Shown: positions 4,640-30,853 of the stretch, piece by piece
How positions within the stretch are numbered: position 1 is the stretch's first letter
How the letters are laid out: every line of letters starts with the position of its first letter
Assembly: GCA_003153775.1 (NCBI GenBank)
Contig: PMBI01000043.1
Span: forward strand, 33,851 to 97,850
Source: Syntrophaceae bacterium
Lineage (GTDB): Bacteria > Desulfobacterota > Syntrophia > Syntrophales > UBA2185
Reading direction: 5' to 3'
Length of the DNA: 64,000 nucleotides
Made by a program: the position numbers and the translations under genes
The notes under the pieces: model-generated
The model's database searches: none
The model's input: the letters and a program-made list of their open reading frames with translations, nothing else
Told to the model about the DNA's origin: nothing

Positions 4640-5012
4640 TGTCAGACCAGATCATAAGCCGAGTTCTGTCCCGCCTTTCCGTCACCGGAAAGACGGTGAT
4701 GATCATCAATCTGGGACAGCAGTTGCCTGCTGCCTCAAGCGACACTACCCGAGAACGTCAAGCGGGCCACTTTTATTGTTCTCCTATTTGGTCTTGCTCC
4801 GGATGGGGTTTACCAAGCTTTCCCGGTCACCCGGGAAACTGGTGAGCTCTTACCTCGCCTTTTCACCCTTACCTGCCAATGACAGGCGGTATATTTTCTG
4901 TGGCACTTTCCTTAGGGTCGCCCCCAGTCGCCGTTAGCGACCATCCTGCCCTGCGGAGCTCGGACTTTCCTCCAGCCCGGAAGACCGGGCCAGCGATCAT
5001 CTGATCTGCTCC
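4640..5012 (-). ncRNA. rnpB: RNase P RNA, bacterial type A
   Basis: The reverse complement contains the universally conserved blocks GGAGGAAAGTCCGAGCTCC, GGTAAGGGTGAAAAGG, GGTAAACCCCATCCGGAGCAAGACCAAATAGG and ACAGAACTCGGCTTA. A P1 helix can form between CAGATCA near the 5' end and TGATCTG near the 3' end. The ends are approximate, +/-5 nt. Confidence 0.9.
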
Positions 5013-6662: not shown

Positions 6663-6738
6663 TGGTGGGCCCACCTGGGTTCGAACCAGGGACCTACCGG
6701 TTATGAGCCGGTGGCTCTTCCAATTGAGCTATGGGCCC
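6663..6738 (-). tRNA. tRNA with CAU anticodon (elongator Met or lysidine-modified Ile2; not initiator), CCA encoded
   Basis: A 76-nt cloverleaf was folded by hand: acceptor GGGCCCA/TGGGCCC, D arm GCTC..GAGC, anticodon stem ACCGG/CCGGT with loop CTCATAA, and T arm CCTGG-TTCGAAC-CCAGG. The G1-C72 pair and the lack of a 3xGC anticodon stem argue against fMet. Confidence 0.92.
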
Positions 6739-18003: not shown

Positions 18004-18783
18004 TCAGACGCATTTTAAAAAAGAGGCGTGCTTCTCAATCATATCTACGATCCCAGCGCTGTTTCCCTGACAGATCATGCTTTTCAGTTGAGCTACGTTT
18101 CGTTCGTATGCATCTACATGCCGATGAATATCGGGATTCATGGTTAAGATGTCGGCATAGAGTCCGGGATTTTGACAAAACACCCTTACCATGATTTCCA
18201 TCTTCTCCCGGAAGATCGGAGTGGAGAACGTCATTAACTCTGGAAGGCTCACCCCGGCCTCGCTCAAGATCAGACCCATCATGATTGTATTGAAATGATT
18301 GAGCCCCTGGACGACGGCCATCATTTGGTCATGCTTCTCCGGCGTCGCTTCCACCACCAGGGCGCCTTTCTTCTGAAAGACGTCCGTGAGCCAGGGAAGC
18401 CACTTCCCTGCCCTCGCGGGACAGAGAACAACATGCTGCCCTGTGATGGAATCAACCCCCGGGCCGAAGAGGGGATGGCATCCGATCACTGCGGAAGCGG
18501 ATGTTTCCAACATGGACCTGACGGAATCCCGCTTCAGAGACGTGAGATCCATGAGAAGAGAAGCCGCGGGCATATGCGGACCGACCTTTGCAATAACATT
18601 GCCGGTCGTCCCCATGGGAACACTCACGACTACCACGTCACATATATCGGCCATTTCTGCGATGTCCGCTTTAAGCACATTACTTCCGCACACACTTACG
18701 GTATATCCCTCCTTCTCGAGGAAGCGGGCAAACCAATGGCCCATACCGCGGGTACCGCCGATGATACCTATCCTGGTCTTCAT
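18004..18783 (-). CDS. tyrA: prephenate dehydrogenase
   Basis: The N-terminal Rossmann fold is IGIIGGTRGMGHWFARFL. HPLFGP and the C-terminal helical domain are typical of the family. It is the last gene of the aro operon. Confidence 0.8.
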   Translation of the reverse strand: MKTRIGIIGGTRGMGHWFARFLEKEGYTVSVCGSNVLKADIAEMADICDVVVVSVPMGTTGNVIAKVGPHMPAASLLMDLTSLKRDSVRSMLETSASAVIGCHPLFGPGVDSITGQHVVLCPARAGKWLPWLTDVFQKKGALVVEATPEKHDQMMAVVQGLNHFNTIMMGLILSEAGVSLPELMTFSTPIFREKMEIMVRVFCQNPGLYADILTMNPDIHRHVDAYERNVAQLKSMICQGNSAGIVDMIEKHASFLKCV

Positions 18784-19853
18784 CGAATCGCCTTATGCCT
18801 CAATAAATGATCCGCCAACACAATCGCCACCATGGCCTCGCACACAGGAATAATCCGGGGTAGTGCCGATACGTCGTGCCTTCCCTTGAGCGACAATTCC
18901 ACGCGATTTCCCCGGACATCGATGGTCTGTTGAACCTTCGCTATCGAAGGGATTGGCTTTGCCGCCACCCGTAAGACTATATCCTGGCCTGTCGTGATGC
19001 CGGCCAGTATGCCGCCCGCATGATTAGAAAGGAAACCATCGGGCGCTATGGGATCATTTGCCTGAGACCCCGTCATCCCGGCAGCCTCAAAGCCGGCTCC
19101 TATCTCCACGCCCTTCACCGTCCCGATACTCATGAGCGCCTTCGCAAGGTCGGCATCCATCTTGTCAAACACCGGTTCTCCCAGACCGGGAGGGCATCCT
19201 CTCACGATTATTTCCACAATGCCGCCTATGGAATCGCCGGAGCGCCGAGCTTCTTCCAGTTTCTCTTCCATAACCCTTGCGACGTCAGGATCAGGGCACA
19301 GCAGGCGATTTACCGCTATATCTTCATGAGAGATTGTTCCGGGTTTATACTTCTTTCGATCTATGACAATCCCTCCCAGCGCCTCTGTATAGGCAATGAT
19401 TGCCACACCCGCCCGTGAAATAATTTTTTGCGCAATTGCCCCTGAAGCCACGCGAGCTGCCGTTTCCCGGCCCGACGCACGTCCGCCGCCCCGGTAGTCG
19501 CGGATCCCGTACTTCTTGAAATAGGTAAAATCACCATGCCCCGGCCTGAAAATGTCCTTTATGTCTTCATAGACGCTGCTGTCAACGTTCATGTTCTCTA
19601 TAATGAGAGAGATGGGCGTGCCCGTGGTTTTTCCCTGAAAAGTCCCGGATAGTATTTTAACTATATCATCTTCCTTTCGCGGCGAACTTGAGGCGATCCT
19701 GCCCGGTCTTCTCCTGTTGAGCCATGTCTGAATGTCTTCTTCCTCAAGGTCGATGCCGGGAGGACATCCTTCCACAACTGCGCCGGTTGCGGGACCGTGT
19801 GATTCACCCCAGGTTGTCACTCTAAAGAGGACGCCTATGGAATTTCCTGACAT
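18780..19853 (-). CDS. aroC: chorismate synthase
   Basis: FRVTTWGESHG, RRPGR, SGRETAARVA and GGILAGITTG are AroC signatures. Confidence 0.93.
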   Translation of the reverse strand: MSGNSIGVLFRVTTWGESHGPATGAVVEGCPPGIDLEEEDIQTWLNRRRPGRIASSSPRKEDDIVKILSGTFQGKTTGTPISLIIENMNVDSSVYEDIKDIFRPGHGDFTYFKKYGIRDYRGGGRASGRETAARVASGAIAQKIISRAGVAIIAYTEALGGIVIDRKKYKPGTISHEDIAVNRLLCPDPDVARVMEEKLEEARRSGDSIGGIVEIIVRGCPPGLGEPVFDKMDADLAKALMSIGTVKGVEIGAGFEAAGMTGSQANDPIAPDGFLSNHAGGILAGITTGQDIVLRVAAKPIPSIAKVQQTIDVRGNRVELSLKGRHDVSALPRIIPVCEAMVAIVLADHLLRHKAIR

Positions 19854-20395
19854 GTTGACTCCTTCTTCACAAATGCGTCTGTGACGTTCAGAAATTCACA
19901 GACAGCGTTGACTGTTTCATCTATGTTCTTACCCGTCGTATCCAATGAAAAATCCGCGATCCCCCTGTATACCGGTATCCGATGTTTGAGGATATCTTCT
20001 GTCTCCCGAACGATATCATCATGCAAAAGGGAAGGCCTCCGTTCTTTGCTTGCGGCATCGTCCCTAATTCTTTCAACCATCGTCATCACATCAGCCCTAA
20101 GCCAGATCAACAAACCATGCCTCTTAAGAATATCGCAATTGCCGTCATCCATGACCGCCCCTCCACCCGTCGCTACAACGCCTCTTTGCAAAAGAACCAG
20201 TTTCCGGACAATCTCACTCTCCCTCTTCCGGAAATATGCCCAGCCTTTTTCCGCCACCATATCCCGGATCGAGATCCCCGTCTCTCGTTCGACAAGCTCA
20301 TCAGTATCATAGAACGGCAGACGCAGCTTATCAGCGAGCCTTTTTCCCACGGCCGATTTACCCGCTCCACGGTATCCAATCAATACGATGTGCAT
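19835..20395 (-). CDS. aroK: shikimate kinase
   Basis: It has the Walker A motif LIGYRGAGKSAVG, then FYDTD and VATGGG. Confidence 0.9.
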   Translation of the reverse strand: MHIVLIGYRGAGKSAVGKRLADKLRLPFYDTDELVERETGISIRDMVAEKGWAYFRKRESEIVRKLVLLQRGVVATGGGAVMDDGNCDILKRHGLLIWLRADVMTMVERIRDDAASKERRPSLLHDDIVRETEDILKHRIPVYRGIADFSLDTTGKNIDETVNAVCEFLNVTDAFVKKESTCQEIP

Positions 20396-21655
20396 TTAAT
20401 CCTCGTATAATTTTGAGAGCTCATCCCAGAATCCGGGAAAGGATTTCCCCACGCAATGCCTGTCTTGTATCCTGATCCCGGGTACTGCGAGTCCTGCAAT
20501 TGCAAAACTCATGGCAATCCGGTGATCGTTATATGTCTCAATATGGGCGCCATGCGGTTTCCCTCCGACAACAATAAGCCCGTCCGATGTTTCTTCTGCA
20601 GCCACGCCGATATTCTTCAGTTCACTTACCAGCGCCGCGATGCGGTCACTTTCCTTGACGCGCAGATGGGAAACATTTGTGATAATCGTTTGTCCGCGTC
20701 TGAATGAGGCAAGAACCGCCAGGGTGGGCACCATGTCAGGCATGTTTCCCATATCGAAAAGAAAGTCCCCTTCACGTAACGCCCCACCGGCAACCTCGAC
20801 CCAATGATCTCCGCGGACTACGGAGCAGCCTAAGCTTTCCATGATACCCAGGATATTGATGTCTCCCTGAAGACTTGCCGGGTTGATGTTTACGACCCTG
20901 ACCCGTCCATGGCACAAGGCCGCAGCGAGAAAGAAATAGGATGCGCTCGACACATCTCCCTCTATGATGTACCTCTGTCCCCTGTAATGCTGCCCGCAAC
21001 TCACATTGAATATCTTCCTTTCTCTCGTGCTCACTTCCGCGCCAAAGCGCCCCATCACGTCCACAGTCATGTCTATGTAGGGCTGTGAAACTGTCCTCCC
21101 GGTGAGAGCAACTTGTATATCACCCGCTGCGTAGGGGGCGCCGATGAGGAGCGACGAAATATACTGGCTGCTCTCCACATCTGCAAAGGCGACGTTGCCG
21201 CCTTTTAAGCCCTCTGCAACGATCTTTACCGGAGGATAGCCGTCCCTGCTTTGAAATTGAACTCCCAGGATTCTCAGGGCGTCGAGAAGCGGCCCCAGTG
21301 GCCTTTCGCGAAGACGGCTGCTGCCGTCGAGAATATATTCACCCTTTCCCAGGGAGGCCACTGTCGTCAGGAACCGGAGCGCTGTCCCATTGTTCCCCAG
21401 CATGATCACCCGTCCCGGATTATGGACATTCCCGCCCGTTCCGGTGACCGTAACATCGCTCCCTGAGATAACGATCTCGGCGCCGAGGAAACGCAACGCC
21501 TCCACGAGATACCTCGTATCCTCCGAAATGAGCGCATTGCTGAGCATGGACCTGCCTTCCGCGAGGCATGCAACGACAAGGGCCCTCTGTGTATAGCTCT
21601 TGGAACCGGGAACCTCGACAGTTGCATTCAAACGACGCACCGGTTTAATTTCCAT
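20396..21655 (-). CDS. aroA: 3-phosphoshikimate 1-carboxyvinyltransferase (EPSP synthase)
   Basis: VPGSKSYTQRALV, LGNNGTALRFL, KESDRI and DHRIAMSFA are EPSPS motifs. Confidence 0.93.
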   Translation of the reverse strand: MEIKPVRRLNATVEVPGSKSYTQRALVVACLAEGRSMLSNALISEDTRYLVEALRFLGAEIVISGSDVTVTGTGGNVHNPGRVIMLGNNGTALRFLTTVASLGKGEYILDGSSRLRERPLGPLLDALRILGVQFQSRDGYPPVKIVAEGLKGGNVAFADVESSQYISSLLIGAPYAAGDIQVALTGRTVSQPYIDMTVDVMGRFGAEVSTRERKIFNVSCGQHYRGQRYIIEGDVSSASYFFLAAALCHGRVRVVNINPASLQGDINILGIMESLGCSVVRGDHWVEVAGGALREGDFLFDMGNMPDMVPTLAVLASFRRGQTIITNVSHLRVKESDRIAALVSELKNIGVAAEETSDGLIVVGGKPHGAHIETYNDHRIAMSFAIAGLAVPGIRIQDRHCVGKSFPGFWDELSKLYED

Positions 21656-23180
21656 ATAAGAGGCGCTCCTTCACAACCTGTTTCATAAACTCTCTCGGGG
21701 CTTCCTGCCCTGTCCAGAGCCTGATCTGTTCCGCCCCTTGATTAACGAACATGCCGAGACCCGGTACAGTTATGCACCCTGCCTTTTCAGAATCCCGCAT
21801 CAGTCTCGTCTTCAGGGGATTATAGACAACATCCACGACCCACGGGTAATTAACAAGAATTGCGCCGTTTACGGGTGATTCATCTGCAGTCTGTTTCATG
21901 CCCACGGGCGTTGTATTGATGAGACAATCCGCCCTGACCCTGCCCACCTCCGAGAGAGTGTAAAAAGAGCATCCCCACTCTTTCGCCAGCTTCTCCCCCC
22001 TTGCAACATTTCTATTGACGATAACGGGAATACCTTCTTCTCTCTCGATGCCGAAAATAGCGGCCCGCGCTGTTCCGCCGGCGCCCAGAATGGCAAACAC
22101 CTTCCCTTTGATATCCGTAACGTCGCTGATGGATTGAATAAGACCGATCCAGTCGGTATTGAAGCCCTTCAGCCTGCCGTTATCATTGACGATCGTATTT
22201 ACAGCGCCGATCTTCCGCGCATCAGCATCTACTTCGTCGAGATGTTCCATGACGGCAACCTTAAAAGGCACAGTGACGCTTGCGCCGCAGATGCCAATTC
22301 CCCTCATGCCTCTCACGGCGGAGCCAATATCCTGTATGCAGAACGGCAAATATTTTGCCGCGATTTCCATCTTCTTGAACGCCGCATCGTGCATAAACGG
22401 CGAGAGACTCTGTTTCACAGGATTTCCGAACAGTCCAAAGATCCGCGCATTAGGGGGCACAGATAATTTTCCTTCACTGCGAACGCCACTACCATAAAGA
22501 TTCATGGCATTCTCCATCTCACCGACGGTAAGCTGACCGGGCGCCGAGGCCATTCCGTCATGGAGCGATGCGAAGCTGAGATAAGAACCGAGGAGGGGCG
22601 CCATTATCCTGCTTTGCCTTCCCTCTTCCCCCATGCAGAACGCGATGATATCATTCTTTCTATCGCGGGCGTAAGGGATCAGTCTGAGAACCGTAAAGTT
22701 ATCCTCAGGACTTCTTGCAAGAGTGACTATTTTGGCAACGCCGGCGCCGCTTTCCATACAGTCTTGGTAAATGTCCTTCAATGTTTCGAATGACGGCGTT
22801 TTGCTGAAATCATGGTGCGAAATTATCACTCTGGTCCGGTTGCCGTGGGAGCTTGCCGCTGCCAGCACATCCAGGCGAAGACGCTCCGCCGTATCAAGTT
22901 CAACGTCGACATAATCCGCGCCAAGGCGGACAGCCTCTTTCAGCAAAGCGATCCTCTCTCCCTCTCCTCTGCTTTCCTCAGACGGCAAAGATCCCTTTCT
23001 TCTGTTCGTGACCAATATCTTGACGGGAATTGGATATGATCTGCACCTCTCCATCAACGTTCTTAAGTCCGCAGTTATCAAATCCATTCTCAACTCCAAG
23101 ACGTGGGCGCGTGACAGACCCATCTCTATCTGGAGCAGAGCCTCTTCCTGTGTGTTTCCTGTGACGGGAATACAGATCAT
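21645..23180 (-). CDS. bifunctional type I 3-dehydroquinate dehydratase / shikimate dehydrogenase
   Basis: The N-terminal half matches AroD type I (ICIPVTG, LELRMD, SHHDF, AKIVT). The C-terminal half matches AroE (GNPVKQSLSPFMHDAAF, LGAGGTARAA). The start is set at the ATG at 23180, which forms an ATGA overlap with the pheA stop. The listed ORF extends to 23255. Confidence 0.88.
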   Translation of the reverse strand: MICIPVTGNTQEEALLQIEMGLSRAHVLELRMDLITADLRTLMERCRSYPIPVKILVTNRRKGSLPSEESRGEGERIALLKEAVRLGADYVDVELDTAERLRLDVLAAASSHGNRTRVIISHHDFSKTPSFETLKDIYQDCMESGAGVAKIVTLARSPEDNFTVLRLIPYARDRKNDIIAFCMGEEGRQSRIMAPLLGSYLSFASLHDGMASAPGQLTVGEMENAMNLYGSGVRSEGKLSVPPNARIFGLFGNPVKQSLSPFMHDAAFKKMEIAAKYLPFCIQDIGSAVRGMRGIGICGASVTVPFKVAVMEHLDEVDADARKIGAVNTIVNDNGRLKGFNTDWIGLIQSISDVTDIKGKVFAILGAGGTARAAIFGIEREEGIPVIVNRNVARGEKLAKEWGCSFYTLSEVGRVRADCLINTTPVGMKQTADESPVNGAILVNYPWVVDVVYNPLKTRLMRDSEKAGCITVPGLGMFVNQGAEQIRLWTGQEAPREFMKQVVKERLLYGN

Positions 23181-24259
23181 CGTGTCTCCTCGCCCCTGGG
23201 ATATGATCCGAGGATCTTCAGGAAATTGGTCTTCCCCCTTACGGCTCTCATACATTTCCTGATTTCCGGGTCATCTGCGTGACCGGAAAAATCAACAAAG
23301 AAGAGATACTCCCATAACCTCTCTCTGAGGGGATATGATTCGATCTTCATCAGGTTAATCCGGCGCAGAACAAATGGCTCCAATGCATGATACAAGGCGC
23401 CCGGTACATGGGGAGTCCCAAAAATGATGGAAGTCTTATCGAGTCCCGTTCTCTTGGTTTCACCTTCTCCTATGACCAGAAATCGCGTCGTATTCGAAGG
23501 ATTGTCTTCGATACCTTCGGAAAGTATATTGAGCCCGTACGTGGTGGCAGCAAGGCGACTCCCTATGGCGGCGCCATATTTATCCTCCCTGACAATCCGG
23601 GCTGCAGCAGCGGTGCTTTCTGCCTCGGCAAGCGCACAGCGGGGAAGATTGGTGCGCAGCCATCCCTGGCACTGCGCCAGCACCTGGGGAACCGAATAGA
23701 CCCGCTTGATCCTGTCCATTCTCCTGCCCGGTGCAAGCAGGCAGTGGCTGATCCTGAGAAAAATCTCCGCCCGGATCTTAAGAGGGGTCAATATCAATCG
23801 ATCGAGGGTCAGGTTAACGGAACCTTCGAGAGAATTTTCCACGGGGACAACCCCCCATTGCACCTTCCCTTTCTCAACTTCGTCAAAGACATGAAAGATC
23901 GATGCCTGAGGGATAAAACCGGTGCTTGTGCCGAAATAGGACTCTGCTGCAAGATGGCTGAATGTCGCATGCGGCCCCAGAAAGGCAACAGTAACGGGCT
24001 TCTGCAAGGCCCGCGAAGCGGAAATGATTTCCCTGAATATTGCCTTCAGGTATTTTTCAGGCAGCGTCCCTTCATTCACCTCTGCCAGGTATTCAAACAG
24101 TTTCGCTTCCTGCGAGGCGTCAAACACATCCAGTCCCTTTTTTGCCTTATCCCTACCTATTTTCATGGACAGCAGTGCCCTCTCATTGAGCAGCTTTACA
24201 ATCCTGCCGTCCGTTTCCTTGAGATCACGCCGGAGGCGCTCAAGTGAGGATAATCTCAT
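23177..24259 (-). CDS. pheA: bifunctional chorismate mutase / prephenate dehydratase (P-protein)
   Basis: It has an N-terminal CM helix (LRRDLKETDGRIVKLLNERALLSMKIGRDK), PDT motifs (VAFLGPHATFSH, VPVENSLEGSV, TRF) and a C-terminal ACT domain. Confidence 0.9.
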   Translation of the reverse strand: MRLSSLERLRRDLKETDGRIVKLLNERALLSMKIGRDKAKKGLDVFDASQEAKLFEYLAEVNEGTLPEKYLKAIFREIISASRALQKPVTVAFLGPHATFSHLAAESYFGTSTGFIPQASIFHVFDEVEKGKVQWGVVPVENSLEGSVNLTLDRLILTPLKIRAEIFLRISHCLLAPGRRMDRIKRVYSVPQVLAQCQGWLRTNLPRCALAEAESTAAAARIVREDKYGAAIGSRLAATTYGLNILSEGIEDNPSNTTRFLVIGEGETKRTGLDKTSIIFGTPHVPGALYHALEPFVLRRINLMKIESYPLRERLWEYLFFVDFSGHADDPEIRKCMRAVRGKTNFLKILGSYPRGEETR

Positions 24260-25350
24260 TTCTTCATTTCCTCCACCGTTTCACGCAGAACCGCTTCCGG
24301 AACGCCTCCGTTTATAAAAGGCATTCCCATCTTCTTAAGCAGGACGAAATGAATCCTGTCACCTTCTTTTTTCTTGTCCGCCCTTAACCTTGTCATGATG
24401 CCGTCCGTTGTTATTGTTTGCGGAATACGGCAGGAGAGGCCCGCACTTTCCAGCAAGTGTTCAATCCTCTCCCTATCCCTGCGTGGAAAATCATGCATGC
24501 CCTCTGATATCCTTGCGGCAGCGACCATGCCTATGGAAACGGCGGCCCCATGGGAAATAGTAAAATTAGACTCAGCTTCGATGGCGTGTCCTATAGTATG
24601 ACCGAAGTTCAGCACACGGCGCATCCCCATCTCCTTTTCGTCTATTTCAACGATACCCTTCTTTATCCTGCAGGCATTTCCAATCATCTCCTCAAGAAGA
24701 TCCCGATCCCTCTCTTTGATTGCCTCAATATTTCTCTCCAAAAAATCAAAGACCTCCACACTATCGATGACACCATATTTGATCGCCTCGGCAAGGCCGC
24801 TGTTCATCTCTTCTTCGGGAAGTGTATCCAGAAACTTCACGTCGATGAACACTCCCTTCGGTTGGTAAAAGGTCCCAAGCAGGTTTTTCCCTTCCGGAAG
24901 ATCTATCGCCGTCTTCCCGCCGATGCTGCTGTCTACCTGGGCCACGAGGGTTGTGGGAATCTGGATATAGGGAATAGATCTCATGAACGTAGACGCGATG
25001 AAACCTGTCACGTCACCGACGACGCCGCCCCCCAGGGCGAGGAGAGCTGATTTTCGGTCAGCTCCGAGTTTTATCAATCTCTCCACTATGGCTACGGTAG
25101 TGCCGATGCTTTTTGCGTCCTCCCCCGCCGGAAACTCGATCATATCCGCCGGGAGCGCCATCTCTCTCAACCTGCCGAGGAGCTTCATTCCATAGATTGC
25201 CGAGACATTGACATCAGTAATGACAATGTAATGAAGGGCCGGCATATGCTTCGCGATGAGCAGTCCTATCCGGTCAAGAACGTCGTATCCGATGCATATG
25301 TCGTACGAGGAGGCTACTCTTTTATCCAGATTGACCTTCATACTCTTCAT
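24256..25350 (-). CDS. aroB: 3-dehydroquinate synthase
   Basis: [26 protein letters not shown] and [11 protein letters not shown] are DHQS motifs. Confidence 0.92.
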
Positions 25351-26375
25351 CGGAGCACCTGCTTCCCTTTCTTCATAACGCCCTCGAGATTTTTTATTTC
25401 TTCCATTAGCTGGTAGAATTTTTCCGGCTTGAGAGATTGACCGCCGTCGGAAACGGCCTTCTCGGGCTCGGGATGAACCTCCACGAGGAGTCCATCAGCT
25501 CCAACGGCCATGGCCGCCCTGCTCAGAGGAATCACATATTTCCAGTTGCCCGCTGCATGACTGGGGTCAACTATGACCGGAAGATGGGTTAATTCTTTCA
25601 AAACCGGAACCGCGCTGATGTCCAGTGTGTTGCGGGTGGCGGTCTCAAAGGTACGAATGCCTCTCTCACAGAGAATGACCTGATTGTTTCCTGAAGAGAG
25701 GATGTATTCCGCTGACATCAGCAGTTCCTCAATCGTGGTCATCATTCCCCGCTTCAACAGAACCGGTTTCTTTGACTGGCCAACTTTCTTGAGAAGGGGG
25801 AAGTTCTGGACATTGCGCGCCCCGACCTGCATTATATCAGCATAAGCCTCAACGAGATCGACGTCTGTCGTATTCATGACTTCCGTAACAACGGGCAAAC
25901 CCGTTTTTTCCCTGGCCTTCGCCAAGAGCTTGAGGCCCTCTTCTTCCATGCCCTGGAAACTGTATGGGGATGTCCTCGGCTTGAATGCTCCGCCCCTGAG
26001 GAGGTGCGCATTCCCCTTCTTTACAATATAGGCGCTTTCCATTACCTGTTCTTCACTCTCCACGGAACAAGGGCCGGCCATGACTATGAAACGGGGACCG
26101 CCGATCTCCACTTCGCCCACCCTGATGATGGTATCCTCTTCCCTGGACTCACGGCTCGCCAGTTTATACGGCTTAAGGATGGATACGACCTTTTCTACCC
26201 CGGCGATTGATTCTGCAGACTTCAGGAAGGCCTTGCCCCGCTCGTCACCGACTGCACCTATGATAGCCCGTTCCACACCCCGTGAAGGATGGGCGTTGTA
26301 GCCCACAGATTCTATCCAGGCAATAACGTTCTCAATCTGTCCTTCGGTTGCGCCTTTCTTCATCACAATAATCAC
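25347..26375 (-). CDS. 3-deoxy-7-phosphoheptulonate (DAHP) synthase, type I-beta with N-terminal ferredoxin-like regulatory domain
   Basis: The catalytic barrel motifs are [23 protein letters not shown] and DPSH. A ~70-aa N-terminal extension resembles the Thermotoga-type allosteric domain. The start is GTG at 26375 with a GGGAG RBS. Confidence 0.88.
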
Positions 26376-26526
26376 GATTCTCCCCTTTCAAAATTAAGTC
26401 TAAGAGTCTCCGCCCGCTTCACTCGCCCGCAGGCAATTAGACTGCGTCCTTCTCTCAAGGCCGTGCTTGACCGGACGCACTTCCTGCAAGTTCCGCTTTG
26501 TATGCGGGGACAGGTCTTATGGAATT

Positions 26527-26560
26527 AAAAAAGGCCATGGAAACATCTCTTCCCATGGCC
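26527..26560 (-). terminator. intrinsic terminator/attenuator hairpin B in the aro leader
   Basis: On the minus strand GGCCATGG (26560-26553), a 12-nt loop and CCATGGCC (26540-26533) are followed by TTTTTT (26532-26527). Confidence 0.7.
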
Positions 26561-26563
26561 TCA

Positions 26564-26608
26564 CAAAATAAAAAGCCATGGGCAGCTTCCCTCAGTCTAC
26601 CCATGGCT
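26564..26608 (-). terminator. intrinsic terminator/attenuator hairpin A in the aro leader
   Basis: On the minus strand AGCCATGGG (26608-26600), a 17-nt loop and CCCATGGCT (26582-26574) are followed by TTTTATTTTG. Confidence 0.7.
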
Positions 26609-26817
26609 CTTATGTCTCATTTAACTGGCGCTAATACCTCCTGAGCAACAGGCAGACCAATAGGTAATAGTAGTTCCAGTAATAAAAGCCTTTGTTCAAC
26701 CCGTTTGTGTTCATTCTGTCCACCACGCTCATTAACAATCGTTGTGCCGAGAAAACCATAAGCGGAAACCATTGTCAAGAAAAAAAATGAGATTCGCACA
26801 TATTGTCTATTGCAAAA

Positions 26818-26826
26818 ATTATATCA
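26818..26826 (-). promoter_or_regulatory. candidate extended -10 promoter (TGATATAAT) for the aro leader transcript
   Basis: The minus strand reads TG-A-TATAAT at 26826-26818. No well-spaced -35 is present (a TTGACT lies 21 nt upstream). I found no sigma70-like promoter between terminator B and the DAHP synthase start. Confidence 0.4.
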
Positions 26827-26892
26827 CCGTGTTTTATTTAACAAAGTCAAGAAGTGGACGGATGATCCTTCTGAAATGAAAGAAGACAGATT

Positions 26893-28332
26893 ATGATAGA
26901 TAGCGTCTGGTCAATGCTGCAGAGCCTGCGGATTCAGGACGTCCTTGACATTGCCATCATATCGATAGCCATTTCCGTACTCCTGATATGGATTAAAGAC
27001 AGGGCATCACGTTTTGTTTTCATCGGCATCAGTCTCCTGGGTTTTATCTATGTCATCGCCAAATTCTTCCAGCTTTACCTTACCACAGTCGTCTTACAGG
27101 GATTTTTTGCCATCCTTCTTTTCGTTCTCGTTGTTATATTTCAGGAAGACCTCCGGAGATTCTTTGAACGTCTTGCGATTCTAGGCATCATCAGGAAAAA
27201 GATTCAAAGGACGACATCACACGGACAGACCTCTGAAATCATAGCACAGACTGTAGCCGATCTTGCCCGTAAGCATATCGGCGCTCTGATCGTTATCCAG
27301 GGAAATGATCCTCTTGACAGACACCTCAGCGGCGGCGTGGAACTGAATGGCAGTCTCAGCGAGCCTCTCTTGGAAAGCATTTTTGATCCTCATTCCGTAG
27401 GCCATGACGGCGCTGTTGTTATCGACGGAAACGTAGTAACTCGTTTTGGATGCCATCTGCCCCTATCTCCGAATGCCAGTCGTTACAAAAATCTTGGTCT
27501 TCGCCACACCGCCGCCCTTGGCCTCTCTGAACGGTCGGATGCCATTTCCATAGTTGTTTCGGAAGAAAGGGGAACCATCTGCATTGCCGAAGGTGAAAGG
27601 ATCAGGGATGTAAACGCGTCGGCCCTCAAGGGTGTCCTGGTAACTTATTATACAAGCAAAGCACCCGTAAAGAAGCCTGGACCTATTGCACGATGGTTAA
27701 AAGAAAATACGAAGGAGAAGGTCATCGCCGTTATCCTTGCCTGTACCCTCTGGATGATTTTCGGATACCAGAGAGAATCAATACAGAAGGATCTTACCAT
27801 ACCTGTCGAATACCTGAACATACCTCCTGAATGGGTAATCGAAGAGCCGAAAATTTCTGAGGCCAGGGTAATGCTTGTTGGTCCTCCGCAGGCCTTTCAG
27901 ATCCTGAATATGGATGCACTCAAGATATCCTTGAATCTGTCACAGATACAGGAAGGCAGACAGGATATAGTACTCACGAAAGACATGATAGATGCTCCTT
28001 CAAACATTACCATAGTAGGGATCAAGCCCAGCCGCATCACCGTCACTGCTTCGCGGTTTGTCCATGTTTCCGTTCCTGTTGAGGTTGTAACTGAAAATGC
28101 GCCGCCTCCGGGAATTGCCGTCCAGAAGATCACAGTAACACCTCCGTCGATTGCGGTTCTGGTACCGGGCAAGCTGCTTCACACTAAAATAAGGATACGG
28201 ACGGCACCGATTGACCTGCGGCCACTGACTTCAACAACTACATTTACACCGAGGCTGATCGTGCCCCCGGAGGTTCAATTCGAGGGCAGAAGAGAGCCAT
28301 CCGTAAAAGTGGTAATCAAGACAAGGAGCTGA
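26893..28332 (+). CDS. diadenylate cyclase (CdaA/DisA_N domain) fused to C-terminal YbbR-like (CdaR) domains
   Basis: There are three N-terminal TM helices. The DAC domain carries HDGAVVI (the DGA motif), GLRHTAALGLSE and VSEERG. A further TM helix is followed by ~200 aa of repeated beta-rich YbbR-like sequence (TIPVEYLNIP..., VSVPVEVV..., VTPPSIAV...). Confidence 0.8.
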   Translation: MIDSVWSMLQSLRIQDVLDIAIISIAISVLLIWIKDRASRFVFIGISLLGFIYVIAKFFQLYLTTVVLQGFFAILLFVLVVIFQEDLRRFFERLAILGIIRKKIQRTTSHGQTSEIIAQTVADLARKHIGALIVIQGNDPLDRHLSGGVELNGSLSEPLLESIFDPHSVGHDGAVVIDGNVVTRFGCHLPLSPNASRYKNLGLRHTAALGLSERSDAISIVVSEERGTICIAEGERIRDVNASALKGVLVTYYTSKAPVKKPGPIARWLKENTKEKVIAVILACTLWMIFGYQRESIQKDLTIPVEYLNIPPEWVIEEPKISEARVMLVGPPQAFQILNMDALKISLNLSQIQEGRQDIVLTKDMIDAPSNITIVGIKPSRITVTASRFVHVSVPVEVVTENAPPPGIAVQKITVTPPSIAVLVPGKLLHTKIRIRTAPIDLRPLTSTTTFTPRLIVPPEVQFEGRREPSVKVVIKTRS

Positions 28333-29405
28333 TGATCATGTCCAGATGGCTCAAGAAGAGATCCGGAAAGACCGGTCTTTCCCCGGGGTCTCTCGTTCAT
28401 ATAGGAGAGCGGTTGACCGAAAGTACAAAAATTACTGTGTTGAACTACGACGAAGCCCACATCGAGGAGAAGGAAGTTAGCACGGCCAGTGAATGCTGGC
28501 AATTCAAGGATCGTCCAACAGTCACCTGGATACATATCAATGGCATTCATGACGTAAAGGCACTCGAAGAGTTGGGAACCATCTTCAGCCTGCATCCCCT
28601 CACCCAGGAAGATATCCTGAATTCCGACCAGCGCCCCAAGATGGAGGATTTCTGTGATTACATCTATATCGTTCTCAAAGCTTTTTACAGCAATGACGGT
28701 CAGGCAAGCGAGGTCCATTCCGAACAGATAAGCATCATCCTCGGCCGGACATTTGTCATATCCTTCCAGGAAAGGGAAACAGACATATTCAGACTCGTCC
28801 GGGAGAGAATCCGCGCCGGCAAAGGACGGCTTAGAAGATCTGGAGCGGATTACCTGGCATATGCCCTCATCGATTCGATAGTCGACAACTATTTTATTAT
28901 TCTCGAACAAGTGGGTGAGCGAATTGAGGTCCTCGAGGAATCACTGATCAAAAGCCCCTCGGCAGAAATACTTCAGGCCATACAAAGCCTGAAACGAGAA
29001 ATGATTTTTTTGAGAAAAACGGTCTGGCCCCTGCGGGAAGCCATCAGCAGTCTTGAACGCACGGGATGCCACCTGGTGAAGGAATCTACGGATGTTTACC
29101 TGAAAGACATTTATGATCATACGATCCAGGTGATAGATACCATAGAGACCTTCCGGGACATGCTTTCCGGCATACTTGACATATATCTCTCAAGCATCAG
29201 TAACAGAATGAATGAAATTATGAAAGTGCTAACCATTATCGCCACAATATTCATGCCACTGACATTCTTAGCCGGCGTATACGGCATGAACTTCAAGTAT
29301 ATGCCGGAACTCGAATGGCACTGGGGATATTTCTCAATCTGGGGCATTATGCTGGCCATCGCCATCTCCATGTTGATGTATTTCAGAAGGAAGAGATGGT
29401 TATGA
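28332..29405 (+). CDS. corA: magnesium/cobalt transporter CorA
   Basis: The C-terminal YGMNF (GMN motif) sits between two TM helices, and the protein is 357 aa. The ATG shares one base with the upstream TGA (TGATG). Confidence 0.9.
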   Translation: MIMSRWLKKRSGKTGLSPGSLVHIGERLTESTKITVLNYDEAHIEEKEVSTASECWQFKDRPTVTWIHINGIHDVKALEELGTIFSLHPLTQEDILNSDQRPKMEDFCDYIYIVLKAFYSNDGQASEVHSEQISIILGRTFVISFQERETDIFRLVRERIRAGKGRLRRSGADYLAYALIDSIVDNYFIILEQVGERIEVLEESLIKSPSAEILQAIQSLKREMIFLRKTVWPLREAISSLERTGCHLVKESTDVYLKDIYDHTIQVIDTIETFRDMLSGILDIYLSSISNRMNEIMKVLTIIATIFMPLTFLAGVYGMNFKYMPELEWHWGYFSIWGIMLAIAISMLMYFRRKRWL

Positions 29406-29463: not shown

Positions 29464-30123
29464 TCAATTGGCGGATGTCTTGTTCAACTGTTGCCGTCCC
29501 CGTGGCGTTAATACAAGCTTAAGCTGATTGCCGCTACTTAACTCCTGCGCGACTGCTCCTTTGGCCATGAGCAGAGAGACGGTTTCATCAAAATCCTTTT
29601 GCGATATTTCTGTATTCTCCATAAGGTCTGTCAGAGTCAGTTTTGCATCTTCTGCAACTGCCAGCTCCCGCAAGATTCTTGACTGGTTTTCTGGTTTCTT
29701 TGCCTTGTCAGGGCTCCTTACAGGCGGCGCCTTAAGTACTTGTTCTTCTATTCTGTCAGGCTGAGCGCCGTTCTTATCAACAGCCTGAGCATACTGCCTT
29801 TCATGTTTTAATCTGCTCCCATACATACGCTCAAGAAATCTGGTGGAGAACACCGCACAAATAACGCATAACCCGCTTAGGGTAAAGAGCTTCAGCGGTC
29901 TCGTCTGCCCGGACTCGAGCAAATCACTGGACAGCAGGTTGAGTAACAGCGGGACCATCAATGCAGCGACTACGCCTATCAAGCTGTGTTTGATAATTAA
30001 ACTAAAAAATGGCTGATCGTCTCGCGCGCTCACGAGGGCGCTTACCATACCGCCCAAGGCCCCCGATATGACCATTATCCCGACAATCAGTATTATGTAA
30101 CTTTCTGGTATGAGTTCTGGCAT
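29464..30123 (-). CDS. hypothetical membrane protein with C-terminal winged-helix-like domain
   Basis: There are three or four N-terminal hydrophobic helices. The C-terminus (SRILRELAV...LTLTDLMENTEISQKDFDETVSLLMAKGAV) looks like a wHTH. I recognise no family. Confidence 0.5.
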   Translation of the reverse strand: MPELIPESYIILIVGIMVISGALGGMVSALVSARDDQPFFSLIIKHSLIGVVAALMVPLLLNLLSSDLLESGQTRPLKLFTLSGLCVICAVFSTRFLERMYGSRLKHERQYAQAVDKNGAQPDRIEEQVLKAPPVRSPDKAKKPENQSRILRELAVAEDAKLTLTDLMENTEISQKDFDETVSLLMAKGAVAQELSSGNQLKLVLTPRGRQQLNKTSAN

Positions 30124-30160: not shown

Positions 30161-30853
30161 TCAAAAATGCACCCACATTTCAAGCGATCCTTTTTGCGCC
30201 CGGGGATAACTCTTTCCGAGATACTTGATCTTTAGATTAATCTTATTAGAAGAAATTGAATGTGCGAAAAAATCGTTAAACTGCTTCTGCAGGAACAGCG
30301 CCGCCTGTCTGTCTTCACCATGAAAATACCTGATGTCTCTCCAGTTGTGCTGTATCCTCTCCATGTCAAGGGAGGTATATCCCTGTGTCCGTAAGAAATC
30401 GGAAAATGCCACAGCCATTTCCTTGTCCTCTTGCCTGGCATAGTGGATGTGTACCTTGCTAACCGCGGGGTATGCAGCGATATCCTTTATGGTCTCTACT
30501 CCCTCCGCCTTTCTTTGCGGGGCAATTGATTCCCTCTCAGGAACTGCCGTCTTTTCGGCGTTGCCACCCGGTTTCGCCGCATTCAGGCTGTTCATCACGG
30601 ACCTGAGCTGCTGCAACTCCTGCAAGGTCTCATCCGCCTTTTTCAGCAGTACCTCGGCATTCGGAGCTCTCTTCTGATTCATGTTAGCAAGATTGGCAAT
30701 CAGAAACCCGGCGCCCAAACCAATCAGCAAGCCGGCTATAAACGTCAATATAAAATGTCTCTTATGGATATATTCGACGGACTTCGTCAAAGCTTTAATC
30801 AAAACACGCAATTCGTGTTCGGTGACAATGGGAGCTGATGCATCTTTATCCAT
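30161..30853 (-). CDS. hypothetical single-pass membrane protein (C-terminal LytR_C-like fold?)
   Basis: It has one TM helix (FILTFIAGLLIGLGAGFLIANL), a coiled linker and a C-terminal alpha/beta domain (VHIHYARQEDKEMAVAFSDFLRTQGY...IRYFHGEDRQAALFL). The family assignment is tentative. Confidence 0.45.
   Translation of the reverse strand: MDKDASAPIVTEHELRVLIKALTKSVEYIHKRHFILTFIAGLLIGLGAGFLIANLANMNQKRAPNAEVLLKKADETLQELQQLRSVMNSLNAAKPGGNAEKTAVPERESIAPQRKAEGVETIKDIAAYPAVSKVHIHYARQEDKEMAVAFSDFLRTQGYTSLDMERIQHNWRDIRYFHGEDRQAALFLQKQFNDFFAHSISSNKINLKIKYLGKSYPRAQKGSLEMWVHF

Follow-up and report, generated by a model that had tools for sequence, protein, structure and literature searches.

The stretch of DNA analysed here, a 64 kb window on contig PMBI01000043.1 of a Syntrophaceae bacterium, carries on its minus strand a cluster of genes for aromatic amino acid biosynthesis, and the subject of this work is the leader RNA, a candidate transcription attenuator, that precedes them. 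According to Pfam assignments the cluster (18004-26375, minus strand) has the order aroF-aroB-pheA-aroDE-aroA-aroK-aroC-tyrA and encodes 3-deoxy-D-arabino-heptulosonate 7-phosphate (DAHP) synthase (DAHP_synth_1, E=1e-82), 3-dehydroquinate (DHQ) synthase, chorismate mutase-prephenate dehydratase, a DHQ dehydratase-shikimate dehydrogenase fusion, 5-enolpyruvylshikimate-3-phosphate (EPSP) synthase, shikimate kinase, chorismate synthase and prephenate dehydrogenase. The eight open reading frames (ORFs) are contiguous or overlapping, a spacing from which they can be taken to form one operon. Translation of DAHP synthase starts at a GTG (26375) preceded by the Shine-Dalgarno (SD) sequence GGGGAG (SD and start, 26373-26385, minus strand), and in all relatives the N-terminus, MIIVMKKG, is in register with this start. 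Between it and a divergent gene with DAC and YbbR domains (26893) lies a gap of 517 bp (26376-26892), in which all the leader elements are read on the minus strand. An earlier inspection of the letters of this DNA (the original prediction) had described this gap, with an extended -10 motif TGATATAAT at 26826-26818 of the minus strand, and direct reading gave the same gap and the same motif.

The comparison was based on 80 related loci found by a DAHP synthase scan with one genome per GTDB species (74-94% protein identity), all of them from Syntrophales, Syntrophaceae, Smithella and related Thermodesulfobacteriota metagenome-assembled genomes and each representing a different GTDB species. Four of the 80 have no scorable leader in the examined window, L024 and L063 due to contigs that are too short, L062 and L069 due to a leader located about 1.1 kb upstream, beyond an inserted gene. 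The alignment of the remaining leaders, A1, contains 76 loci; L042, whose contig cuts the 5' end of the ORF, was excluded.

The first component of the leader is a short ORF of 27 codons, from ATG to TAG (26631-26714, minus strand), which reads MNTNGLNKGFYYWNYYYLLVCLLLRRY up to its stop. Its codons 10-17 are TTT TAT TAC TGG AAC TAC TAT TAC (F Y Y W N Y Y Y; 26664-26687, minus strand), and a stop-free run with at least seven aromatic codons in nine occurs at a single place in the 64 kb, at 26690, when all six frames are scanned. The original prediction had found no consistent leader-peptide model, a view that this ORF overturns, since its aromatic cluster is conserved in the 76 loci. In particular, an equivalent ORF with 6-8 aromatic codons in nine lies upstream of DAHP synthase in 76/80 loci, that is, in every locus with enough upstream sequence. 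The consensus peptide of the relatives is MDRKLNANxNFYGYWFYTYFASVCPSLRRTC followed by the stop; 74 of the 76 ORFs start with ATG, and an in-frame GTG of the window (26723) aligns with the ATG of the MDR... start of the relatives. An SD-like GGTGGA is placed 4 nt upstream of the window's leader ATG.

The way in which this run varies is informative. Counted back from the stop, positions 12-18 hold an aromatic codon in 63-91% of the loci and positions 2-10 in 0-6%, and the identity of the residue (F, Y or W) at a given position changes among relatives while the aromatic class is retained. Gaps within the run are 3 nt long in A1, and the mean codon count per leader is 2.9 for Phe, 3.9 for Tyr and 1.2 for Trp, with Trp present in 70/76. 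This pattern has the signature of a regulatory codon run, and not that of a conserved protein or of a conserved RNA helix; the content of the operon, namely the common pathway with pheA and tyrA, fits these codons. No Pfam or NCBIfam family was found for the leader peptides.

The 60-aa ORF at 26799-26617 described in the original prediction does exist, although not as the leader frame, which is that of 26714-26631. It was also considered as a gene and discarded, being another frame of the leader ORF with no Pfam family; the two alternative frames of the leader ORF are open in just 17 and 31 of the 76 relatives.

Tandem hairpins and alternative pairings

Two hairpins followed by U tracts stand back to back after the leader ORF. 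Terminator A (26565-26609, minus strand) consists of a hairpin at 26609-26573, AGCCAUGGGUAG...CUGCCCAUGGCU, and the U tract UUUUUAUUUU; terminator B (26527-26562, minus strand) consists of a hairpin at 26560-26533, GGCCAUGGGAA...UUUCCAUGGCC, and UUUUUU. This arrangement, already recognized in the original prediction, was read directly, was returned by a repeat finder (inverted repeats I1 for A and I3 for B, with the direct repeats D2 and D3 making A and B alike) and is conserved in the relatives. The terminator scan reports B and misses A, since the loop of A exceeds the 8-nt limit of the scan. RNAalifold on 76 sequences recovers both hairpins with compensatory changes in 12/18 pairs, including terminator A, in which the core is of eight pairs and compensatory changes are also present. 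The main ground for considering the hairpins more than a chance occurrence is precisely this conservation in relatives. A and B, known here as sequence features, would act as intrinsic terminators.

The order of the blocks in A1 is constant in its outline: the aromatic run, GGTCTGCCCGTCGCTGAGGAGG (which reads VCPSLRR), the stop, a spacer of about 21 nt, hairpin A (AGCCATGGGTAGATCGAAAG..GCTGCCCATGGC) with its T tract, a spacer of about 14 nt, hairpin B (GGCCATGGCGGCAAAA.GCCATGGCC) with its T tract, GGAGG and the start codon. After the stem of A the median number of T is 8 of 9 nt (76 loci), and after that of B it is 7 of 9 nt (measured in 71/76 loci). By BLASTN, 26672-26520 is the sole part of the 517-nt gap that matches most relatives, and in most loci the conserved stretch ends about 15-25 nt before the DAHP synthase start codon.

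Hairpin A follows the leader ORF in 76/80 loci and hairpin B does so in almost all of them. In L012, L016 and L030 an unrelated GC-rich hairpin without a U tract (A1 columns ~180-225) takes the place of B, and in L025 hairpin B is absent; terminator A and the pairing region 2 described below are intact in these four loci. Terminator B is thus common, not universal. No second copy of the element was found elsewhere in the window, and each related locus has one, always upstream of the aro operon. A search of metagenomes with the pattern GGTCTGCC-N45-75-GCCATGGG gave no locus passing the terminator and aromatic-cluster filter among the matches listed (120 loci); the 25 matches displayed are GC-rich, do not have the other features of the element and are apparently due to chance, the pattern being too unspecific.

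The arms of the two hairpins also have other potential partners. The leader ORF ends in a conserved block, GGUCUGCCCGUCGC, that can pair with the 5' arm of A. Within it, region 2 (UUGGUCUGCCUGUUGC; 26645-26660, minus strand) is the predicted 5' strand of an antiterminator, and its alternative partner is region 3 (26592-26608, minus strand), which comprises the 5' arm of A and the edge of its loop (AGCCAUGGGUAGACUGA). The region 2 block GGTCTGCC is nearly invariant in A1. The 3' arm of A (region 4) is in turn complementary to the 5' arm of B (region 5) over 11 nt (91%; repeat I4), a pairing that the original prediction had proposed. Regions 2, 4 and 6 resemble one another, and the same is true of regions 3 and 5.

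These complementarities are maintained in the relatives. The 2:3 pairing (region 2 with 26608-26592) is compatible in 91% of A1 cells, against 28-43% for slid controls, in which the partner is shifted by 1-3 columns, and the 4:5 pairing in 95%; the 24 pairs of 2:3 and 4:5 together are standard in 92.8% of cells, again against 28-43% for slid controls. The mean energies over the 76 loci are -25.6 kcal/mol for 2:3, -21.5 for A, -19.2 for 4:5 and -17.4 for B; in the window the corresponding values are -24.0, -25.6, -19.3 and -18.2 kcal/mol. When native arm pairs were compared with arms exchanged between species (2000 permutations), the native combinations were better for 2:3 (z = -3.9), A (z = -8.4), 4:5 (z = -5.8) and B (z = -14.8), and 0/2000 permutations were as low; the control combination 3:6 gave no effect (z = +0.4), and 2:5 gave a small one (z = -3.0). 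Three frameshifted leaders add a further indication: in L056, L061 and L067 a 1-nt insertion before the GGTCTGCC block changes the peptide tail to CIGLPVDEED..., and the GGTCTGCCCG nucleotides are kept despite the altered peptide, which argues that the block is constrained as RNA.

The original prediction had left the choice between an attenuator and an unclassified riboswitch; the former fits the data presented here and the latter does not. A metabolite-binding riboswitch, or a tRNA-sensing T-box leader, would use A and B as its expression platform, and it would account for the presence of two terminator-like hairpins and for a long leader that folds better than dinucleotide shuffles (z = -3.4 for 296 nt and -3.7 for 440 nt; the minimum free energy fold contains both hairpins). 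Moreover, aromatic operons are controlled by T-boxes in Firmicutes. In the comparison with Rfam 15 by cmscan, however, the whole window at gathering score yielded an RNase P RNA and a tRNA gene outside the leader and no family within it, and relaxing the threshold to E<=10 on 26200-27000 (800 nt) returned three implausible hits well short of the gathering score (luteovirus BTE, Streptococcus sRNA, yeast snoRNA) and no T-box model, in line with the absence of T-box sequences noted in the original prediction. Outside close relatives, conservation is limited to the short ORF and the hairpins, with no conserved domain beyond them and nothing upstream; the sole conserved upstream block is the coding run with region 2, which evolves as codons, keeping the aromatic class and having gaps of 3 nt. 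The strand of the antiterminator, furthermore, lies within an ORF. A riboswitch or T-box is accordingly regarded as exceedingly improbable, and the sensing element would be the translating ribosome and not a ligand-binding RNA.

Predicted ribosome-dependent folding and the proposed mechanism

The distances in the leader fit the masking of region 2 by a ribosome: the first aromatic codon is located at a median of 33 nt before the core of region 2 (GGUCUGCC), the end of region 2 is followed by the leader stop at a median of 11 nt, and the stop by hairpin A at a median of 21 nt. In the window, region 2 is enclosed in a further hairpin, P1 (26631-26670, minus strand), formed by CUAUUACCU/AGGUAUUAG with an inner CCUG/CAGG stem closing UUGCU, which had been noted in the original prediction and is located at 26670-26631; the Tyr codons constitute its 5' arm. 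Its counterpart in relatives is a weaker GGUCU:AGGAC hairpin, present in about one third of the sequences.

The effect of the ribosome was evaluated in a co-transcriptional snapshot, in which a 28-nt footprint is masked and the transcript ends at region 3, before region 4 exists. With the A site on the aromatic codons, the probability of the 2:3 pairing, P(2:3), is 0.85 as the mean of the 76 loci and 0.96 in the window; when the ribosome sits 4-8 codons ahead of the stop it is 0 in both cases, and it does not exceed 0.04 on codons 3-10. Folding at equilibrium, with the ribosome masked and the whole terminator included, was also tried and abandoned: for the window sequence it fails to tell the states apart, which the snapshot does.

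Taken together, these features lead us to read the element, with a probability of roughly 85%, as a ribosome-mediated (leader-peptide) transcription attenuator of the eight-gene shikimate/Phe/Tyr operon. Transcription would start upstream of the leader ORF (26714-26631, minus strand). A shortage of charged tRNA-Phe, -Tyr or -Trp would make the ribosome stall on codons 10-17 and melt P1, leaving region 2 (UUGGUCUGCCUGUUGC) exposed just downstream; region 2 would then pair with region 3 as the latter emerges, blocking terminator A, and the freed region 4 could pair with region 5, blocking terminator B, so that the polymerase would read into aroF. When aromatic amino acids are replete, the ribosome would run over region 2 to the stop, 11 nt beyond, and would mask region 2 while regions 3 and 4 are made; A would form and cause termination at UUUUUAUUUU, and a polymerase that escapes would meet B.

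The second half of this scheme is held with less assurance than the first. A chain like that of the his leader, in which 2:3 and 4:5 alternate with A and B and a relay couples B to A, is a tentative proposal with nearly even prospects of being right. It is possible, with the balance tilting somewhat against it, that a single peptide responds to all three amino acids and sets off a domino of four helices (2:3, then 4:5) by which both terminators are turned off at once. If true, the domino would give a fail-safe or steeper response than attenuators with a single terminator, and the near-invariant palindromic GCCAUGGC arms would be 'frozen' since each arm has two obligatory partners.

A number of observations weigh against the attenuator or against its relay. 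The covariation that the original prediction had proposed to examine is present for A and B and scarce for the alternative helices: for 2:3 and 4:5, double-sided changes occur in 4 pairs (8 cells), which does not exceed the level of column shuffles, and most of the variation in these pairs is a one-sided G-U/G-C/A-U exchange. Double-sided changes are few because the arms hardly vary, and the 4:5 helix shows just one; part of its pairing follows automatically from the palindromic GCCATGGC core, which makes some of the alternative pairings in general automatic. With the ribosome at the stop codon, represented by the simple mask, P(2:3) is still 0.62 on average and 0.43 in the window, and with no ribosome it is 0.74 as the 76-locus mean and 0.29 in the window, where the low value is due to hairpin P1 enclosing region 2. 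The 'off' state consequently rests on steric and timing arguments and not on computation. Once region 4 is present, the equilibrium in the window favours A in every ribosome state (P(A) = 0.98), and across relatives the equilibrium P(A) dips just from 0.96 to about 0.6, which means that the switch would have to be kinetic. The switch of the E. coli trp leader is also kinetic, and there too 3:4 is the more stable helix. Finally, the leader ORF has a weak SD and an ambiguous start codon (ATG 26714 or GTG 26723), and in the window a spacer of 137 nt separates B from the gene.

The scarcity of double-sided covariation would equally be expected if an RNA-binding protein, with a logic similar to that of TRAP or PyrR, read the GCCAUGG(G/C) repeats and set termination, the aromatic ORF being secondary or incidental. 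In fact, the four GCCATGG-type arms are conserved beyond the needs of a stem, as invariant columns in A1, and their core is palindromic and repeated (D2, D3). Such invariance is, however, also expected if each arm has two partners, since a single compensatory change is then insufficient, and the two partners of each internal arm probably explain the nearly frozen GCCATGG cores. A protein of this type, in addition, gives no role to the cluster of aromatic codons or to its fixed distance from region 2 and the stop, and no candidate regulator gene is linked to the element in the window, where the neighbours are the cdaA-ybbR fusion, corA and the aro genes. Control by such a protein is considered decidedly unlikely in comparison with attenuation by the translating ribosome.

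An ORF of 20 codons (26522-26582, minus strand) runs across B from an ATG in the 3' arm of A; it reads MAFYFVRPWEEMFPWPFLIP up to its stop and 7/20 of its codons are aromatic. It was judged incidental, since its Phe and Trp codons are simply the U tracts and CCAUGG cores taken as codons; among relatives it differs in frame, in where it ends and in length (2-48 aa), and in eight loci the stop of such an ORF overlaps the DAHP synthase start codon. The idea that the AUG, which the 3' arm of A always contains, is exposed only in the read-through state, and there starts this second short ORF across B, is unlikely.

Promoters, spacer and neighbouring genes

Two promoter candidates precede the leader ORF. 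The extended -10 motif TGATATAAT (26818-26826, minus strand) is a likely promoter in this lineage, in which it would function without a good -35; L001 and L003 alone share it, at a similar distance ahead of the leader ORF, and it is not among the sites given by the hexamer scan. The second candidate is a TTGACA that follows a T run (26773-26778, minus strand), the counterpart of the conserved -35 (TTTTTCTTGACA) of most relatives, in many of which tcTTGACA is followed, after 16-19 nt, by a -10-like hexamer; between the end of this hexamer and the leader ATG there are about 15-45 nt (about 65 nt at most, in a few cases). The window's -10 matching TTGACA is poor (TTTTCT), which makes the use of 26778-26773 doubtful. 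The extended -10 lies 48 nt further upstream of TTGACA, and the loss of a usable -10 together with the presence of an upstream extended -10 suggests promoter turnover within the family. Since either candidate start is upstream of the leader ORF, the attenuator model does not depend on which is used. As an observation in its own right, the T-rich run with TTGACA (TTTTTCTTGACA; 26773-26790 in the window, minus strand) has an equivalent in about 30 related loci and resembles an UP-element plus -35.

Downstream, the consensus scan found no sigma-70-like site on the minus strand between B and the aroF start, as the original prediction had also noted, and most relatives, in which some 20 nt separate the end of B from the DAHP synthase start codon, offer no space for a promoter there. 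This point bears on a further explanation, according to which the tandem terminators end an independent small gene or small RNA (sRNA) and the aro operon is transcribed from a separate downstream promoter. The 137 nt after B in the window could hide a non-consensus promoter, and transcripts of attenuators can act as sRNAs, as rnTrpL reportedly does (PMC6614838). No promoter-like site was nevertheless found in the spacer; in most relatives the short interval between the U tract of B and the start codon contains the SD only; conservation does not extend to the peptide sequence itself, frameshifted variants being tolerated; the element, moreover, is always upstream of the aro operon, once per locus. 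An independent transcript of this kind is very improbable.

The spacer between B and the SD (26390-26526, minus strand) is GC-rich and lineage-specific: only the 3' 73 nt of 26526-26390 match L001 and no match was found in the other loci. The 149-nt stretch 26376-26524 folds at -45.7 kcal/mol, and a hairpin, AGUCUAA...UUAGACU (26443-26397), stands just before UAAUUUU and the SD. The spacer was considered as a repeat or mobile element and discarded, no other copy being found in the window or in the 80 loci. Other, shorter inserts occupy the same position in L005/L006, L066 and L076.

In L062 (3005-3970), with the same arrangement in L069, both of them Smithella-like, an HMGL-like gene of the aldolase / pyruvate carboxyltransferase family is inserted between the attenuator and DAHP synthase; from its position it would be co-regulated by the supply of aromatic amino acids.

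On the other side of the gap, the divergent diadenylate cyclase gene (26893-28332, plus strand) is a single ORF of 479 aa with CdaA_N, DAC and a YbbR domain, the latter usually belonging to a separate CdaR regulator. It is followed by a gene for a CorA Mg2+ transporter (28332-29405, plus strand), whose start overlaps the stop of the diadenylate cyclase ORF, and by a 219-aa ORF (29464-30123, minus strand) with a YLATT domain (YEATS-like-associating three-transmembrane, Pfam PF20303); no Pfam match was obtained for the adjoining 230-aa ORF (30161-30853). The RNAs detected by cmscan in the window are a bacterial class A RNase P RNA (4640-5012, minus strand; 321 bits) and a tRNA gene (6666-6738, minus strand).

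Relation to known attenuators

The enterobacterial trpL, pheL, hisL, leuL and thrL leaders share with this element a short ORF rich in codons for the end product, a terminator of the intrinsic type ahead of the first gene of the operon, a preceding segment able to pair with the 5' arm of that terminator, and the selection between two structures by the position of the ribosome, which here is proposed. In contrast to them, the element comes from Syntrophales (Thermodesulfobacteriota), resembles them neither in sequence nor by covariance model (no match to Trp_leader, Phe_leader, His_leader, Leu_leader, Thr_leader or any other Rfam leader family even at E<=10), and mixes codons for three amino acids, those for Tyr being the commonest; it would control the common pathway with pheA and tyrA and not one branch, and it has two consecutive terminators with U tracts.

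By architecture, the closest known system appears to be the alternating-helix chain of the his leader. The his leader of Salmonella and E. coli, in the model of Johnston et al. (1980), reportedly has six segments that pair as A:B, C:D and E:F or as B:C and D:E. In such a chain of alternating helices a change at the 5' end propagates along the leader; for the present element the corresponding propagation, as 2:3 with 4:5 against A with B, is a tentative prediction. In the his leader the last helix alone is a terminator, while here the middle helix (A) also has a U tract, which would give two points of termination.

By target, the closest precedent is the leader peptide of Corynebacterium glutamicum aroF, which contains F-Y-F and belongs to an attenuator before a DAHP synthase gene (PMC4046766). 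The two leaders have in common the target and the mixture of Phe and Tyr codons; they differ in that the C. glutamicum leader, unrelated in lineage and sequence, has three aromatic codons (6-8 in the element), a single gene and, as described, a single terminator. A second terminator in tandem, together with a potential antiterminator, is known from the rimP-leader (PMC2965389), which, unlike this element, has no amino-acid-specific leader peptide, precedes other genes and relies on another sensing mechanism.

The element is apparently an undescribed family of a textbook mechanism, its unusual feature being the conserved, possibly relay-coupled, double terminator. If the coupling is true, this would be, to our knowledge, the first leader-peptide attenuator with two relay-coupled terminators, conserved in at least 70 Syntrophales species. 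The literature searched contained no described aro leader from Syntrophales or deltaproteobacteria, and an earlier prediction in Syntrophus is possible, as Lopatovskaya et al. 2010 may cover delta-proteobacteria. Neither the ORF nor the element has a model in Rfam, Pfam or NCBIfam, and genome annotation pipelines will consequently miss both. As a natural example of two terminators possibly coupled via alternative helices, the element is relevant to the understanding and engineering of graded or fail-safe attenuation. It adds a family of 76 species to the leader-peptide attenuators, outside the classical Gamma-, Alpha- and Betaproteobacteria and Actinobacteria, and it explains how an uncultured, slow-growing lineage of syntrophs probably controls its whole aromatic pathway by a single RNA element.

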